Shown: positions 50,309-54,983 of the stretch, piece by piece
How the letters are laid out: each line of letters opens with the position of its first letter
Numbering within the stretch: the first letter of the stretch is position 1
Assembly: GCA_026416195.1 (NCBI GenBank)
Contig: JAOAFQ010000012.1
Location: forward strand, 13,955-77,954
DNA: 64,000 bases
Direction of reading: 5' to 3'
From: Candidatus Aminicenantes bacterium
Lineage (GTDB): Bacteria > Acidobacteriota > Aminicenantia > Aminicenantales > CALLJL01
Notes under the pieces: model-generated
Databases searched by the model: none
What the model was told of the DNA's origin: nothing
Seen by the model: only the letters and a program-made list of their open reading frames with translations
Made by a program: the position numbers and the translations under genes

Positions 50309-52660
50309 TTATTTAGATTTATTGGTTTTTTCAAAGTAAGCCTCTATTGTCTTTAACCATTTAGCTTTCGTCCTGACCACGACAGCAGGCAAGAGAGTCA
50401 AGGCCCCCAGACCTGAACTTAACATGGTCAAGGCCACCAGTAATCCAAACCGCCTCAACGGAATAAGATTGCCTAAAACTAGGATTAAAAATCCTAAGGC
50501 CACAGTAACCATGTTAATAGTAATGGCTCGACCAGTACTGCGGAGGGTCTTTTCCGCCGCTTCGATCAAAACGCCGCTATCGGAAATAAATTTTCTTTCA
50601 GTGGCCGAATCTCTAAGGTCAGCCGCTGATGAAAATTGAGGAGTGGATGATAATGATGAAAATAATTCTAAGCGAAATCGGTTGATCCAATGGAGAGCAT
50701 AATCAATGCCAATGCCAATAGAAACACTACCTACAAGAACCGTAGCGATGTCCAGAGGAATCCCCGCATATCCCATAAAGCCAAAAACAAGAATTAACGT
50801 AAAAATGATAGGAATCATGCCTAGCCAAGCACCAAAGGGAGAGCGAACCAAAAAAAGCACACAAAGATAAATTAGCCCAAGGGCGATAGCTAAACTCACT
50901 AACTGACTCTGAATGAGGCTCCGATCAAGGTGAAGATAAACTAGAGGCGAACCAGAAAATTCCATTTGAGCGCCTTTAAAGGAACGTTGTTTGATCCAGC
51001 TTTCAAGGCGATTCACCAATTCTTGCATTTCGCCCATATCTAGACTGGGAATCGTCGCTTGAATGATGGCCTCCTTTTTATCGGGGTGTAAGATTTGATC
51101 AAGGCCTTCTTGTCCCTCCAGCAAGAAAAGCAGATTACTTACCTTTTCTCTGGTATCTGGAATAACCTCCCCTTCACCCATCAAATCATTCATCTCCGCT
51201 AAATAATCGGCAATGGAAAGAGGATTATGAACGAAAGGCTCAGCCTCCAGAAATTCCTCAAGGGCCTTCATTTCTCGAAGAACGGCTGGATCTTGGATAT
51301 CTCCTCTGACAAGAATGCTAATGGGAATGGATCCACCAAATCTTTTTTCTAAGAAATCTTCACTTCGTCTGATTTCGCTCGTCGGCTCAAAATAGTCGAG
51401 CATTTTCGAATGGCGCTTAATTTGGGGAATTCCCCCAATTGCTATCCCAATTATCAAGAGGAAAATTAGAAGAGTAATTTTCTCTTGCCTCAAAAAACTA
51501 AAACTCCACTTTTCGAAACGAAGCAACAGCGAATTAGAAGCTCTTCTGTTTTTAGAAGAAGATCTTTTTTTCTCTGGCCAGCGTGATTGGATGATAAAAA
51601 GAAGAGCTGGGCCAAAAGTTAAGGATAAAAGCAACGAAAAAAGAATCCCGATAGAGGCAAAAAGCCCAAACTCTCTGATAGCTGTAAGATAGGAACCGAA
51701 AATAAAGGAAATGAAACCGGCGATGGTCGTCACCGCCGCCAGAAAAACCGAAGCTGAAACATGGGCCAAAGCTTTTTCTTTTTCGCCTCCAGGCGCCTCA
51801 TCAAACCGATTAAGAATATGAATACTATAAGCACTGCCAATCGCTAACAACAGGACAGGAATGGCATCAGAAATAATAGTTAAAGGCACCTTAGCCAAAC
51901 TCATGACGCCCAAAGTCCAGAGAGTACTGATAGCGACCGTAACGAGGGGGAGGAAAACACCTCGCCAACTTCGAAAGCTCAGGAAAAGGCAGAGAAAAAC
52001 CACAGTAATCATGAGAGGGAGAAGTGTTTTCAAATCATTGATGATAAAGCGACTAATTTCTCGAAGTTGAGCTGGTAATCCAGCCAATCTAACTTCTCCT
52101 GGCAATCGACTTGCCTCGATAATTTTTTCTATTTCCTCCATAACTTTATTCTTATCAACATCCTTGCGCAAAGCGACAATAAGCAAAGCGACCCGCCCAT
52201 CTGCTGAAACAAGGCGACCTCGAAAACGCTTTTTCGCCAGAACATATTCTCGCAATTCTTTGGCCTTGGCCTCATCAATGGGAAAATCCTCATCCCTAAT
52301 GAGCTTACCAATTTCGAGGCCTTCTTCACTTTTCTTTAAATCCAAAACATTGGTTAAACTGGTCACATAGTTGACCCCTTCAAGAAGTTGAAGCTGGGAA
52401 GTCAGCTGACGAAGAGCCTCAAGGGTCGAAGGCTGAAAGACATCTTCACTTTCGAAAGCAATCACCGCCACGAAATTTCCCCCGTAAGTATCAGCGATAT
52501 ATTCAAGCGTTTTTACCGCTGTGTCGGTTCGAGGTAAATAGGAGGTTAGATCAGCATTGATCTTCAGACGGCTTATGGGCCAGGCAAGAATTAAGGTTAA
52601 AAGAACCGTTCCTAAGACAATCGGCCAGCGAAATCGAAAAACAAATTGGAAAAACCTCAT
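50309..52660 (-). CDS. MMPL/RND family transporter
   Basis: Two-repeat RND architecture; AIGSAYSIH and GIGIDYALH, LTLLPA. Confidence 0.92.
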   Translation of the reverse strand: MRFFQFVFRFRWPIVLGTVLLTLILAWPISRLKINADLTSYLPRTDTAVKTLEYIADTYGGNFVAVIAFESEDVFQPSTLEALRQLTSQLQLLEGVNYVTSLTNVLDLKKSEEGLEIGKLIRDEDFPIDEAKAKELREYVLAKKRFRGRLVSADGRVALLIVALRKDVDKNKVMEEIEKIIEASRLPGEVRLAGLPAQLREISRFIINDLKTLLPLMITVVFLCLFLSFRSWRGVFLPLVTVAISTLWTLGVMSLAKVPLTIISDAIPVLLLAIGSAYSIHILNRFDEAPGGEKEKALAHVSASVFLAAVTTIAGFISFIFGSYLTAIREFGLFASIGILFSLLLSLTFGPALLFIIQSRWPEKKRSSSKNRRASNSLLLRFEKWSFSFLRQEKITLLIFLLIIGIAIGGIPQIKRHSKMLDYFEPTSEIRRSEDFLEKRFGGSIPISILVRGDIQDPAVLREMKALEEFLEAEPFVHNPLSIADYLAEMNDLMGEGEVIPDTREKVSNLLFLLEGQEGLDQILHPDKKEAIIQATIPSLDMGEMQELVNRLESWIKQRSFKGAQMEFSGSPLVYLHLDRSLIQSQLVSLAIALGLIYLCVLFLVRSPFGAWLGMIPIIFTLILVFGFMGYAGIPLDIATVLVGSVSIGIGIDYALHWINRFRLELFSSLSSTPQFSSAADLRDSATERKFISDSGVLIEAAEKTLRSTGRAITINMVTVALGFLILVLGNLIPLRRFGLLVALTMLSSGLGALTLLPAVVVRTKAKWLKTIEAYFEKTNKSK

Positions 52661-52669
52661 TTCGCTCCC

Positions 52670-53251
52670 TCAGCGCTTAAGAATGCCATAAAAAAGAACG
52701 TTAAGGAGACGATCAATCTCTCTTTCTATTTTTTCCCCATCGTGAGAGATAGCCCAAGTATATTCATAACCTTTGATGGCTATGATGATCGCCTCAGCGG
52801 TTAAATCTAGATCAGTAACTTCGAAAATTCCTTTTTCCACCCCTTCCTTCAAGATACCTTTTATGGTCTCAATTTCATAACGGTCATAATCTCGTCTAAT
52901 TTTCTGAATAAAACCGTAAGATTCAAGGTATTCTTCGCGAAAGGCATGATATAGATTGGCCAACCGGCGTAAGGCCCTCATTCTTGTCTTAACGTAGGCT
53001 ACCAATTTATCAATCGGCGAAAGAGCGGCCTTCATGGCCCGAGCAATTTCTTCCCGGACAAGACTTGACTCTTTCTCAACAACCGCCCGATAAATTTCCT
53101 CTTTGCTTTTAAAATAATGATAGAGGGAACTCTTGGCCTTAAAGACAGCTCGGGCAATATCTTCCATCGTGGTCTTTTTAAAACCCAGTCGAGAAAATAT
53201 TTCCCGAGCTGTCTCCACTATTCTTTGTTCCGACAAATCAGGCTTTCTCAT
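52670..53251 (-). CDS. TetR/AcrR family regulator
   Basis: GFKKTTMEDIA, SSLYHYFKSKEEIY. Confidence 0.94.
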   Translation of the reverse strand: MRKPDLSEQRIVETAREIFSRLGFKKTTMEDIARAVFKAKSSLYHYFKSKEEIYRAVVEKESSLVREEIARAMKAALSPIDKLVAYVKTRMRALRRLANLYHAFREEYLESYGFIQKIRRDYDRYEIETIKGILKEGVEKGIFEVTDLDLTAEAIIIAIKGYEYTWAISHDGEKIEREIDRLLNVLFYGILKR

Positions 53252-53256
53252 AATTT

Positions 53257-53309
53257 TCGTCCAATTTGTTAGATTGTTCGATTATAAATAGATTTAAGAA
53301 AACTGTCAA
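53257..53309 (-). promoter_or_regulatory. Consensus sigma70 promoter with overlapping probable TetR operator
   Basis: Minus strand TTGACA (53309-53304)-N17-TATAAT (53286-53281); imperfect inverted repeat TCGAACAAT-N7-ATTGGACGA (7/9) spans the expected +1. Confidence 0.8.
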
Positions 53310-53465
53310 GAAATAGCCTTTTTAAATAAAATTCTTATTCACCTTCAATCGATAATGGTAAGATAAAAAAGGAGGTGAAAAAGGCGATTCAATTCTTACT
53401 TCTAGCTCTGGCTTAAGGCCAGGAAATATTTAAGGGGTGAAAACTAAGATCGGGTTGGTCAGTCG

Positions 53466-54983
53466 ATGAGAAGAGCAGCCATTTTCCTTGATCGAGATGG
53501 AACTTTAATTGAGGAAAAAGGATATCTTCGCTCCTCGGAAGAAGTTGAATTTCTTCCTGGGATTTTCAAAGCTTTAAAAAAAATAAAAAACCGTTATCTT
53601 TTTTTCATTGTCACCCATCAGCCAGGTATTGGCCGAGGTGAATTGAAGCGAGATGAAGTCGAGAAGGTTAATTCTTTCATCCAAACCCGATTAGCTCAAG
53701 AGGGAATCATCATCAAAAAAATTTACATGTGTCCTCACCGCCGAGAAGATAATTGTGAATGTATTAAACCTAAACCTTATTTCCTATATCAAGCTGCCCA
53801 AGAATTTAACCTTGATCTTTTAAGCTCCTATGTTATTGGGGACCATCCAGTTGATGTCGAGTTGGCCCGAAGGGCTGGGGCCTCTGGCCTTTATCTCCTC
53901 ACTGGCCATGGGGCCAAACACTTAGCTGAACTTAATCATTATTTCCCAATTTTCCATGACTTAAATCAGGCGATTGACTATATTCTTCAAACTGAAGAGG
54001 CCTTAGACAAAGCCTCTACTATCCTTCGCCAGGGAGGAGTAGTTGCTTTCCCTACTGAAACTGTGTATGGGTTGGGAGCTGATGTTTTTAATTCTCTGGC
54101 TGTCGCCCGCGTTTTCGAAATTAAGGCCAGACCTCATTTCGATCCTCTTATTGTTCATATTGCCTGCATGGATGATCTTCTTCGACTGGCTCAAAAGATC
54201 CCCGACAAGGCTTTAAACCTTGCGAAAAAATTTTGGCCAGGCCCACTTACCCTAGTTTTGCTTAAAAAAGAAATCGTGCCGGATATAGTTACTTCGGGGT
54301 TGCCCAGTGTGGCCATTAGAATGCCCCGTCATAACTTAGCTTTAAGGCTCATTCTTAAAACCGAACGACCAATTGTTGGGCCTAGCGCTAATCCCTTCGG
54401 CTATCTCAGCCCAACCACAGCTCACCACGTCAGGGACCAGTTGGGCTCTAAGATCGACTTCATCTTAGACGGCGGTCCTTGTGAAGTCGGATTAGAATCA
54501 ACTATAATTTCCTTTCTAGAGGACCCGCCTCGCCTTCTGAGACCAGGGGGTATTCCTCTTGAAGACATAGAGTCAACGATTGGTCCGATAAATTCTACTC
54601 CCCTAGTTAAGTTGAAGCCAGAAGCGCCTGGTCTTTTACCCCGTCATTATGCCCCTCGGACGCGAGCTTATCTTGATTGGTCAGAAGCTGATTTCTGGCG
54701 CTGGAAGGAAGAAGGCAAAAAAATTGGCCTTCTCTCTTTTCGGGGAGAAAAGACTAATCTTCCCTTTGATCATCTCGAAATTCTCTCACCCGAGGGCGAT
54801 TTACGTCAGGCCGCTGCGGCTCTTTTCGCCTCGCTTCATCGGCTCGATAAAGCCAAGCTTGATCTCATTTTAATTGAAAAAATCCCGGAAATTGGTTTAG
54901 GCCGGGCCATCATGGACAGATTACGCCGCGCAACCTTTCTCTCTTCGGACAACCCATTCCCTTCCTTTTCAGAATCGCCCTAA
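53466..54983 (+). CDS. Fusion: GmhB-like HAD phosphatase + Sua5/TsaC threonylcarbamoyl-AMP synthase
   Basis: N-terminal FLDRDGTL, VTHQPGIG, CPH..CECIKP, VIGDH; C-terminal VAFPTETVYGLGA, KARPHFDPLIVH, FWPGPLT, PSANPFG, APGLLPRHYAP. Confidence 0.9.
   Translation: MRRAAIFLDRDGTLIEEKGYLRSSEEVEFLPGIFKALKKIKNRYLFFIVTHQPGIGRGELKRDEVEKVNSFIQTRLAQEGIIIKKIYMCPHRREDNCECIKPKPYFLYQAAQEFNLDLLSSYVIGDHPVDVELARRAGASGLYLLTGHGAKHLAELNHYFPIFHDLNQAIDYILQTEEALDKASTILRQGGVVAFPTETVYGLGADVFNSLAVARVFEIKARPHFDPLIVHIACMDDLLRLAQKIPDKALNLAKKFWPGPLTLVLLKKEIVPDIVTSGLPSVAIRMPRHNLALRLILKTERPIVGPSANPFGYLSPTTAHHVRDQLGSKIDFILDGGPCEVGLESTIISFLEDPPRLLRPGGIPLEDIESTIGPINSTPLVKLKPEAPGLLPRHYAPRTRAYLDWSEADFWRWKEEGKKIGLLSFRGEKTNLPFDHLEILSPEGDLRQAAAALFASLHRLDKAKLDLILIEKIPEIGLGRAIMDRLRRATFLSSDNPFPSFSESP

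Follow-up and report, generated by a model that had tools for sequence, protein, structure and literature searches.

Few tRNA modifications are universal; threonylcarbamoyladenosine (t6A) is one of them, and Sua5/TsaC, which takes the first step towards it, is essential in most bacteria. The long-form enzyme Sua5/TsaC2 converts L-threonine, CO2 or bicarbonate and ATP into threonylcarbamoyl-AMP (TC-AMP) and pyrophosphate (PPi) for the formation of t6A at position 37 in tRNA. In a 64,000-nucleotide stretch of DNA from Candidatus Aminicenantes bacterium (assembly GCA_026416195.1, contig JAOAFQ010000012.1, positions 13,955 to 77,954 of the forward strand; hereafter the window), the gene for such an enzyme was found to be joined in frame behind a phosphatase domain of the zinc-loop HAD-IIIA type. 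The features of this fused gene, in window coordinates, are as follows.

53466..54983 (+), fused HAD-IIIA phosphatase-Sua5/TsaC2 gene, 505 aa plus stop codon, from the list of open reading frames (ORFs), Pfam, NCBIfam and full-length relatives
53466..53960 (+), Zn-loop HAD-IIIA phosphatase domain, residues 1-165, from TIGR01656 (128 bits), GmhB and HisB-N structures, and model confidence (pLDDT 94-98)
53490..53498 (+), HAD motif I, D9-R-D11, with the nucleophile and the acid/base Asp, invariant across the 117 aligned fusions
53730..53768 (+), short Zn cap C89-P-H91-(5 residues)-C97-E-C99 followed by I100-K101, the latter being the motif III Lys, from the alignment
53838..53846 (+), HAD motif IV, G125-D126-H127, invariant in the fused-protein alignment
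53901..53921 (+), subfamily-specific motif T-G-H-G-x-K-H, residues 146-152, with G147, H148, G149 and H152 invariant in fused proteins
53961..54029 (+), junction, predicted as a single unbroken helix over residues 166-188, from DSSP on the AlphaFold model
54021..54548 (+), Sua5 catalytic YrdC/TsaC-like domain, residues 186-361, PF01300 with an E-value of 3e-58
54552..54932 (+), interdomain loop with H394-Y395 and SUA5 C-terminal domain (residues 363-489), PF03481 with 93 bits

A single uninterrupted 505-aa ORF runs on the plus strand from the ATG at 53466 to the stop codon at 54981-54983. The original prediction, made from the DNA letters, had described one 505-aa ORF in which a GmhB-like phosphatase and Sua5/TsaC both keep their catalytic motifs across a short junction with no evident internal start or Shine-Dalgarno (SD) sequence, and each of these observations was borne out. 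The HAD half carries D9-R-D11 and C89-P-H91...C97-E-C99, and the Sua5 half carries P196-TETVY-201, S307-A-N309 and P388-G...H394-Y395. Pfam assigned Sua5_yciO_yrdC (PF01300) to residues 186-361 with 197 bits against a cut-off of 25 and Sua5_C (PF03481) to residues 363-489, together with HAD models over residues ~16-155. Among the NCBIfam models, TIGR00057 for L-threonylcarbamoyladenylate synthase scored 199 bits (cut-off 123), while the GmhB/HisB-N type HAD model TIGR01656 scored 125-128 bits (cut-off 84) and TIGR01662 reached 91 bits on the HAD half (cut-off 45). The C-terminal two thirds is thus a complete long-form Sua5/TsaC2, to which TC-AMP synthesis is assigned through family membership, and the N-terminal third retains all the catalytic residues of a Mg-dependent Zn-loop HAD-IIIA phosphatase.

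A homology search covering 5.8 billion proteins returned at least 116 distinct full-length fused relatives (~500 aa, 51-78% identity) among the best 120 matches, all sharing the HAD, Sua5 and Sua5_C architecture. Where these proteins are named at all, the name is 'L-threonylcarbamoyladenylate synthase' only, and their sources are metagenome-assembled genomes (MAGs) of Planctomycetes, Planctomycetaceae or Thermoguttaceae. Alignment of 117 fused proteins revealed D9, D11, T13, C89, H91, C97, C99, K101, P102 and D126 as invariant in the HAD half, where T50 and D130 are conserved as well, and T197-ETVYGL-L203, K220, R222, S307-A-N309, H394 and Y395 as invariant in the Sua5 half. Judged from this pattern of residues, both halves are under purifying selection.

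Between residues 133 and 200 no in-frame ATG, GTG or TTG was found, nor was there an SD-like sequence at the junction; the Sua5 part therefore has no separate start of its own, and both halves can be translated solely as one chain. The gene call of the source assembly (P0008, 336 aa, 53973-54983, plus strand) covers the Sua5 part alone, starting from an ATT at residue 170 that no SD-like sequence precedes, and it looks like an annotation artefact that conceals the fusion. The same open frame was present in both congeneric genomes and in independent metagenome assemblies at the same syntenic site, in the order TetR-MMPL, fusion, ispF-ispD-PIN/TRAM-radA. The two separate genes in close relatives that had been named as the finding that would speak against a fusion were not seen, both congeners carrying the fused form at this site. 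A recent loss of a stop codon, which had also been put forward for this locus, is excluded by the at least 116 fused relatives reaching down to 51% identity and by the invariant catalytic residues in both halves. The locus is a genuine bifunctional gene that has long been fixed, and a fusion under selection is supported.

To describe how the two halves are arranged, an AlphaFold2 model was built from the family alignment, its secondary structure was assigned by DSSP, and Foldseek was used for comparison with the PDB. The model covers all 505 residues with a mean predicted local distance difference test (pLDDT) score of 94.1 and a predicted template modelling (pTM) score of 0.91. A single helix, residues 166-188 (pLDDT 93-98), leads out of the HAD domain and continues as the first Sua5 helix; because this one helix spans both domains in the model, the junction is predicted to be a structured element rather than a floppy linker, with the two halves packed as one rigid body. 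The C-terminal part matched the Sua5 structures of P. abyssi (6f87), S. tokodaii (3aje) and T. maritima (9dsq) with target template modelling (TM) scores of 0.84-0.88 and 34-46% identity, the P. abyssi enzyme standing at 0.86 and 46%. The N-terminal part matched B. bronchiseptica GmhB, E. coli GmhB and E. coli HisB-N with TM scores of 0.79-0.88, B. bronchiseptica GmhB being the top structural match (0.88). No PDB entry spanning both halves was found by Foldseek, the best query TM being 0.59.

Compared with characterised long-form Sua5/TsaC2, residues 186-489 of the fused protein show the same two domains, the TETVYG, KxR and SxN motifs, the HY loop and the same fold. Whereas the characterised enzymes start with the helix that precedes the first strand, the fused protein has ~165 additional N-terminal residues that form the HAD phosphatase and continue unbroken into that helix. 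The HY motif, a hallmark of Sua5, has been described as serving PPi/ATP binding (PMC10321239). No Sua5 other than the fused one is present in the host genome (2.88 Mb, 94% complete), which is close to a MAG labelled Candidatus Aminicenantes with 66% identity and the same synteny. Apart from the fusion, PF01300 matches only an 802-aa open frame of this genome, which we take to be probably HypF-like.

The HAD half (175 residues) was searched against 1.84 billion representative proteins. Its nearest relatives (~45-54% identity) were a mix: some are fused to Sua5, some stand alone with 180-200 aa, and some are fused to unrelated partners, namely an MFS transporter, an MGMT DNA-binding domain, a cytidylyltransferase and DUF3108 (P0175, P0180, P0188 and P0199, respectively) and a hexapeptide protein (P0155), so that this small HAD-IIIA module joins other proteins with unusual promiscuity. 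In a maximum-likelihood tree of 178 HAD domains, all 51 Sua5-fused domains fell into one 71-row clade (SH-aLRT 96), which also takes in 11 standalone members and 9 members of other architecture; the standalone copy of the host, E. coli GmhB and E. coli HisB-N were placed outside. Position 100 is Ile in 53 of the 71 clade rows and Arg in 104/104 rows outside, the latter residue being shared by E. coli GmhB (Arg110), HisB-N and the host's standalone copy. Arg110 of E. coli GmhB is said to contact the substrate, reportedly according to Nguyen et al. in 2010. Arg93 in the Zn loop is specific to the clade, Pro occupying this position in 83 of the 104 relatives outside. In the clade, His127, His148 and His152 vary little or not at all; outside it, position 127 is mostly Lys, and neither H148 nor H152 is conserved. 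The HAD half thus belongs to a distinct subfamily that is mostly fused to Sua5. Its 5-residue short Zn cap is of the kind that Kinateder et al. linked to HisB-N and to promiscuous short-cap beta-GmhBs (PMC9798254).

One standalone clade member (P0172, encoded at L115:593-1138) reads FLNREGT for FLDRDGT and GSH for GDH; with both catalytic Asp residues lost, it is probably an inactive pseudo-phosphatase. Its gene is located before a DUF4914 gene and purE.

Several lines of evidence bear on whether the HAD half is GmhB, the phosphatase of ADP-heptose synthesis for the lipopolysaccharide (LPS) core, as had been proposed. The GmhB equivalog and subfamily cut-offs were all missed: the half scored 127-130 bits against 178 for NF006506, 106-109 against 149.6 for TIGR00213 and 112-115 against 250 for NF050049. 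With E. coli GmhB (3l8e/2gmw) and B. bronchiseptica GmhB (3l8h) it shares the HAD-IIIA core, motifs I-IV and the CxH...CxC zinc loop (TM 0.83-0.88), but it shows CxC-I-KP in place of CxC-R-KP and GD-H in place of GD-K, carries the extra invariant His148 and His152, belongs to a separate clade, and coexists with a canonical long-cap GmhB. This second Zn-loop HAD-IIIA gene (C92:87501-88220) lies ~20 kb downstream of the fusion and ~10 kb past the window end. Its cap is of the 12-residue long form that is typical of beta-GmhB, its score with NF006506 is 155 bits, higher than that of the fused half, and it overlaps a heptosyltransferase II gene (TIGR02195, 212 bits) at the latter's stop or 3' end, the pair lying within C92:87501-89262. 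On these features it is probably the organism's true LPS-core heptose phosphatase. A GmhA-like gene (183 bits) and an rfaE-type kinase (378 bits, above cut-off) complete, together with heptosyltransferase II, the heptose pathway genes recorded in the genome. Both congeners likewise carry a fused and a standalone TIGR01656 copy, and in all three genomes of the genus the fused HAD therefore stands alongside a canonical GmhB. One fusion-bearing MAG (G402) has no TIGR01656 copy other than the fused one, and a match to the rfaE kinase was not found there. Since the canonical copy adjoins heptosyltransferase II, and since pocket residues are changed and the domain occurs in a MAG seemingly without the heptose pathway, the fused HAD half is probably not the LPS enzyme GmhB.

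'GmhB-like' thus holds solely as a statement of fold and family, not as demonstrated orthology. The identity with GmhB and ADP-heptose synthesis proposed for this half is left unsupported by its separate subfamily, its changed pocket residues and the better GmhB candidate beside heptosyltransferase II, and the suggested coupling of translation to envelope synthesis loses its basis along with it. From the idea of a true Rosetta-stone link, the part that stands is a selected fusion, for which conservation, synteny and the rigid model speak; the GmhB premise is not supported.

A histidinol phosphatase was also considered and rejected for this genome. The HAD half shares with HisB-N of E. coli (2fpr), itself a GmhB-derived HAD domain, the fold, the 5-residue short zinc cap and the N-terminal fusion to a biosynthetic enzyme; the partner, however, is imidazoleglycerol-phosphate dehydratase (IGPD) there and Sua5 here, and the HisB-N model TIGR01261 scored 87-90 bits against a cut-off of 140. 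A tblastn search with E. coli HisG, HisD and HisB found no histidine pathway in the 94%-complete genome, neither HisG, HisD nor IGPD being matched and the sole HisB matches being those to the two HAD domains. By its gene content, histidine auxotrophy is probable for the organism. A link through HisC was discarded as well: the aminotransferase upstream of the Planctomycete fusions is of the PRK08637 type and not hisC.

The fusion is patchily distributed, occurring in an Aminicenantes-like genus, in some Planctomycetota and in one Myxococcota-labelled MAG. In a 401-genome sample of the host's own phylum, a full-length fused match was found in one genus only (3 genomes), the remaining genomes having an unfused Sua5 at loci without TetR or ispF neighbours. 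Among 121 Planctomycetota species representatives, the TIGR01656 domain was found in 94, nearly all of them standalone, and the Sua5 fusion was found in one (G409) among the genomes with long-enough frames, a count that may be low. The third occurrence is in a MAG labelled Deltaproteobacteria/Myxococcota (L002, the MAG G402 mentioned above). In a tree of the Sua5 domain, the fused rows fail to group as a single clade, with at least 3 changes required by supported branches. The MAG labelled Myxococcota is far off on this tree, yet its HAD half carries the clade signature, as do all the HAD halves represented there. Most simply read, this pattern would reflect one or a few ancient fusions, after which the gene spread horizontally and was at times split again.

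The gene neighbourhoods differ between these lineages. On Planctomycete contigs, the fused gene follows phosphoenolpyruvate carboxykinase and the otherwise uncharacterised PRK08637-type aminotransferase, and on its downstream side lie a gamma-carbonic-anhydrase-like hexapeptide protein plus biotin carboxylase, or else purE (L104:7588-9995, L107:7568-8080). P0155 represents a direct fusion of the same HAD subfamily to a hexapeptide domain. This CO2/bicarbonate-related neighbourhood is recurrent and fits the substrate of Sua5. Standalone clade members occupy sites similar to those of the fusion or stand ahead of an MFS transporter.

In the lineage of the window, the gene is monocistronic, flanked by a divergent TetR/MMPL pair on one side and the convergent ispF-ispD on the other, and no operon-type functional clue was found around it in the window. 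The TetR-family gene (52670-53251, minus strand) precedes an MMPL/RND-type transporter gene (50309-52660, minus strand). A perfect sigma-70 consensus (TTGACA, 17 nt, TATAAT; 12/12) is located just upstream of this divergent TetR-family gene at 53281-53309 on the minus strand. In a syntenic relative, the fused gene's start is overlapped by a 106-aa DUF6506 gene (L109:5684-6004), which the window's 214-nt intergenic region (53252-53465) does not contain.

HypF offers a comparison for the layout, with acylphosphatase, Zn finger, YrdC-like and Kae1-like domains in that order (PMC9654439). Both proteins place a phosphohydrolase N-terminal to a YrdC/Sua5-type adenylating domain, and HypF structures match the Sua5 half, a likeness of layout only. 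The phosphatase folds are unrelated (acylphosphatase versus HAD), and the fused protein has no Kae1-like domain: no acylphosphatase or Kae1-like Pfam domain was detected in it, and TIGR00143 for hypF scored 15 bits against a cut-off of 466. We know of no use by Sua5 of carbamoyl phosphate, the substrate of HypF.

These results are consistent with a HAD half that would work as a phosphohydrolase on its own substrate. The latter would probably be tied to the Sua5 reaction, either as a phosphorylated product or inhibitor that is removed or as a phosphorylated precursor from which a Sua5 substrate is supplied, and the arrangement would resemble HypF, in which an N-terminal acylphosphatase domain feeds the YrdC-like domain. 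As a general claim, a distinct phosphatase coupled to Sua5 is favoured here and seems reasonably probable, while any specific link is much less certain.

The alternative that survives best is that of a passenger, in which the HAD domain would be an ordinary alpha-/beta-GmhB or a broad sugar-phosphate phosphatase kept for co-expression, with no mechanistic link to t6A. It shares much of its evidence with the points that weigh against a distinct, coupled phosphatase. The best family scores of the fused HAD are still those of GmhB models, though below cut-offs, and the top structure is the B. bronchiseptica enzyme. In the Planctomycete G409, no TIGR01656 copy exists besides the fusion, which is accompanied by a weak rfaE-like kinase (232 bits, below cut-off), and there the fused HAD domain could act as GmhB; moreover, Arg93 in the Zn loop might replace the role of the lost Arg100, leaving heptose bisphosphate as a possible substrate. 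Standalone clade members exist without an adjacent Sua5 (none next door in the three of three contigs examined), and therefore the phosphatase does not strictly need Sua5. A Planctomycete standalone member lies in the same aminotransferase/chorismate-synthase neighbourhood, which suggests that the fusion arose from adjacent genes, and the joining of the module to MFS, hexapeptide transferase, cytidylyltransferase, MGMT and DUF3108 partners likewise speaks for a passenger. In addition, MAG incompleteness weakens every argument from absence. Against a passenger stand the missing of every GmhB equivalog cut-off, the replacement of an Arg that is invariant in all 104 other relatives, the coexistence with canonical GmhB throughout the genus and the presence of the domain in a MAG without an rfaE kinase match. 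The rigid interdomain model and the conservation down to ~50% identity across phyla further favour selection on the joined state. A mere passenger is accordingly held to be rather unlikely, if well short of negligible.

A distinct, coupled phosphatase could also be given a far bolder form, in which the HAD domain is a working part of the first t6A step and the TC-AMP synthases of many bacteria depend on the hydrolysis of an unrecognised phosphorylated compound. The chemistry of this step, from threonine, CO2 and ATP to TC-AMP and PPi, is regarded as settled. The proposal draws on the fact that unrelated phosphohydrolase folds, HAD here and acylphosphatase in HypF, join YrdC/Sua5-type adenylating domains. 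Candidate compounds would be an acyl phosphate delivering the carboxyl or carbamate unit, a phospho-amino acid delivering threonine, or an inhibitory phosphorylated by-product, and the rigid, helix-linked packing would serve the passage of such a compound between the two active sites. We regard this form as quite improbable.

A dedicated pyrophosphatase, in which the HAD domain would hydrolyse the PPi from TC-AMP synthesis and pull the adenylation forward, appears very unlikely. The Sua5 reaction does release PPi, which is seen near the HY loop in Sua5 crystals (PDB 6f87, 9dsq), and HAD-fold pyrophosphatases exist, such as that of B. thetaiotaomicron (3qu5), a distant Foldseek match; this known enzyme, however, has a different cap type and matches weakly (TM ~0.5), and loss of the pocket Arg is not expected of a PPi site. 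The host genome contains an H+-pyrophosphatase (C191:4821-6887, 817 bits) and no match to a family-I soluble pyrophosphatase, but both fusion-bearing congeners have a soluble family-I enzyme (~200 bits) and four fusion-free genomes are without one. Phyletic complementarity was tried as an argument and gave no support, the presence of family-I pyrophosphatase not being complementary to the fusion.

An artefact or very recent event, whether an assembly error or a lost stop codon joining two genes, has a next to negligible chance: the source assembly's own call P0008, limited to the Sua5 part, is what speaks for it, against the uninterrupted frame at the same syntenic site in the independent assemblies of two congeners and several metagenomes, the many fused relatives, the lack of a canonical start codon inside and the conserved, structured junction helix of the model.

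Full-text searches of the literature for TC-AMP synthases in connection with HAD phosphatases or with fusions turned up no account of the HAD-Sua5 architecture. Surveys of Sua5/TsaC and a review of t6A enzymes (PMC4615747, PMC10321239, PMC9654439) name only HemK, Kae1-Bud32, HypF, TobZ and TsaN as fusions. The architecture is thus present in databases but unnamed, and apparently undescribed in papers. Annotation contributes to this concealment, the proteins being named TC-AMP synthase only or, in the source assembly, the Sua5 part alone being called, and the fused proteins should not be annotated as GmhB. Both parts are familiar, and their join is robust yet unexplained. If the link were one of mere co-expression, the protein would be an ordinary domain-architecture variant; a phosphatase partner that is conserved, co-translated and predicted to be rigidly docked hints, however, at an extra t6A step, proofreading or a regulatory input.

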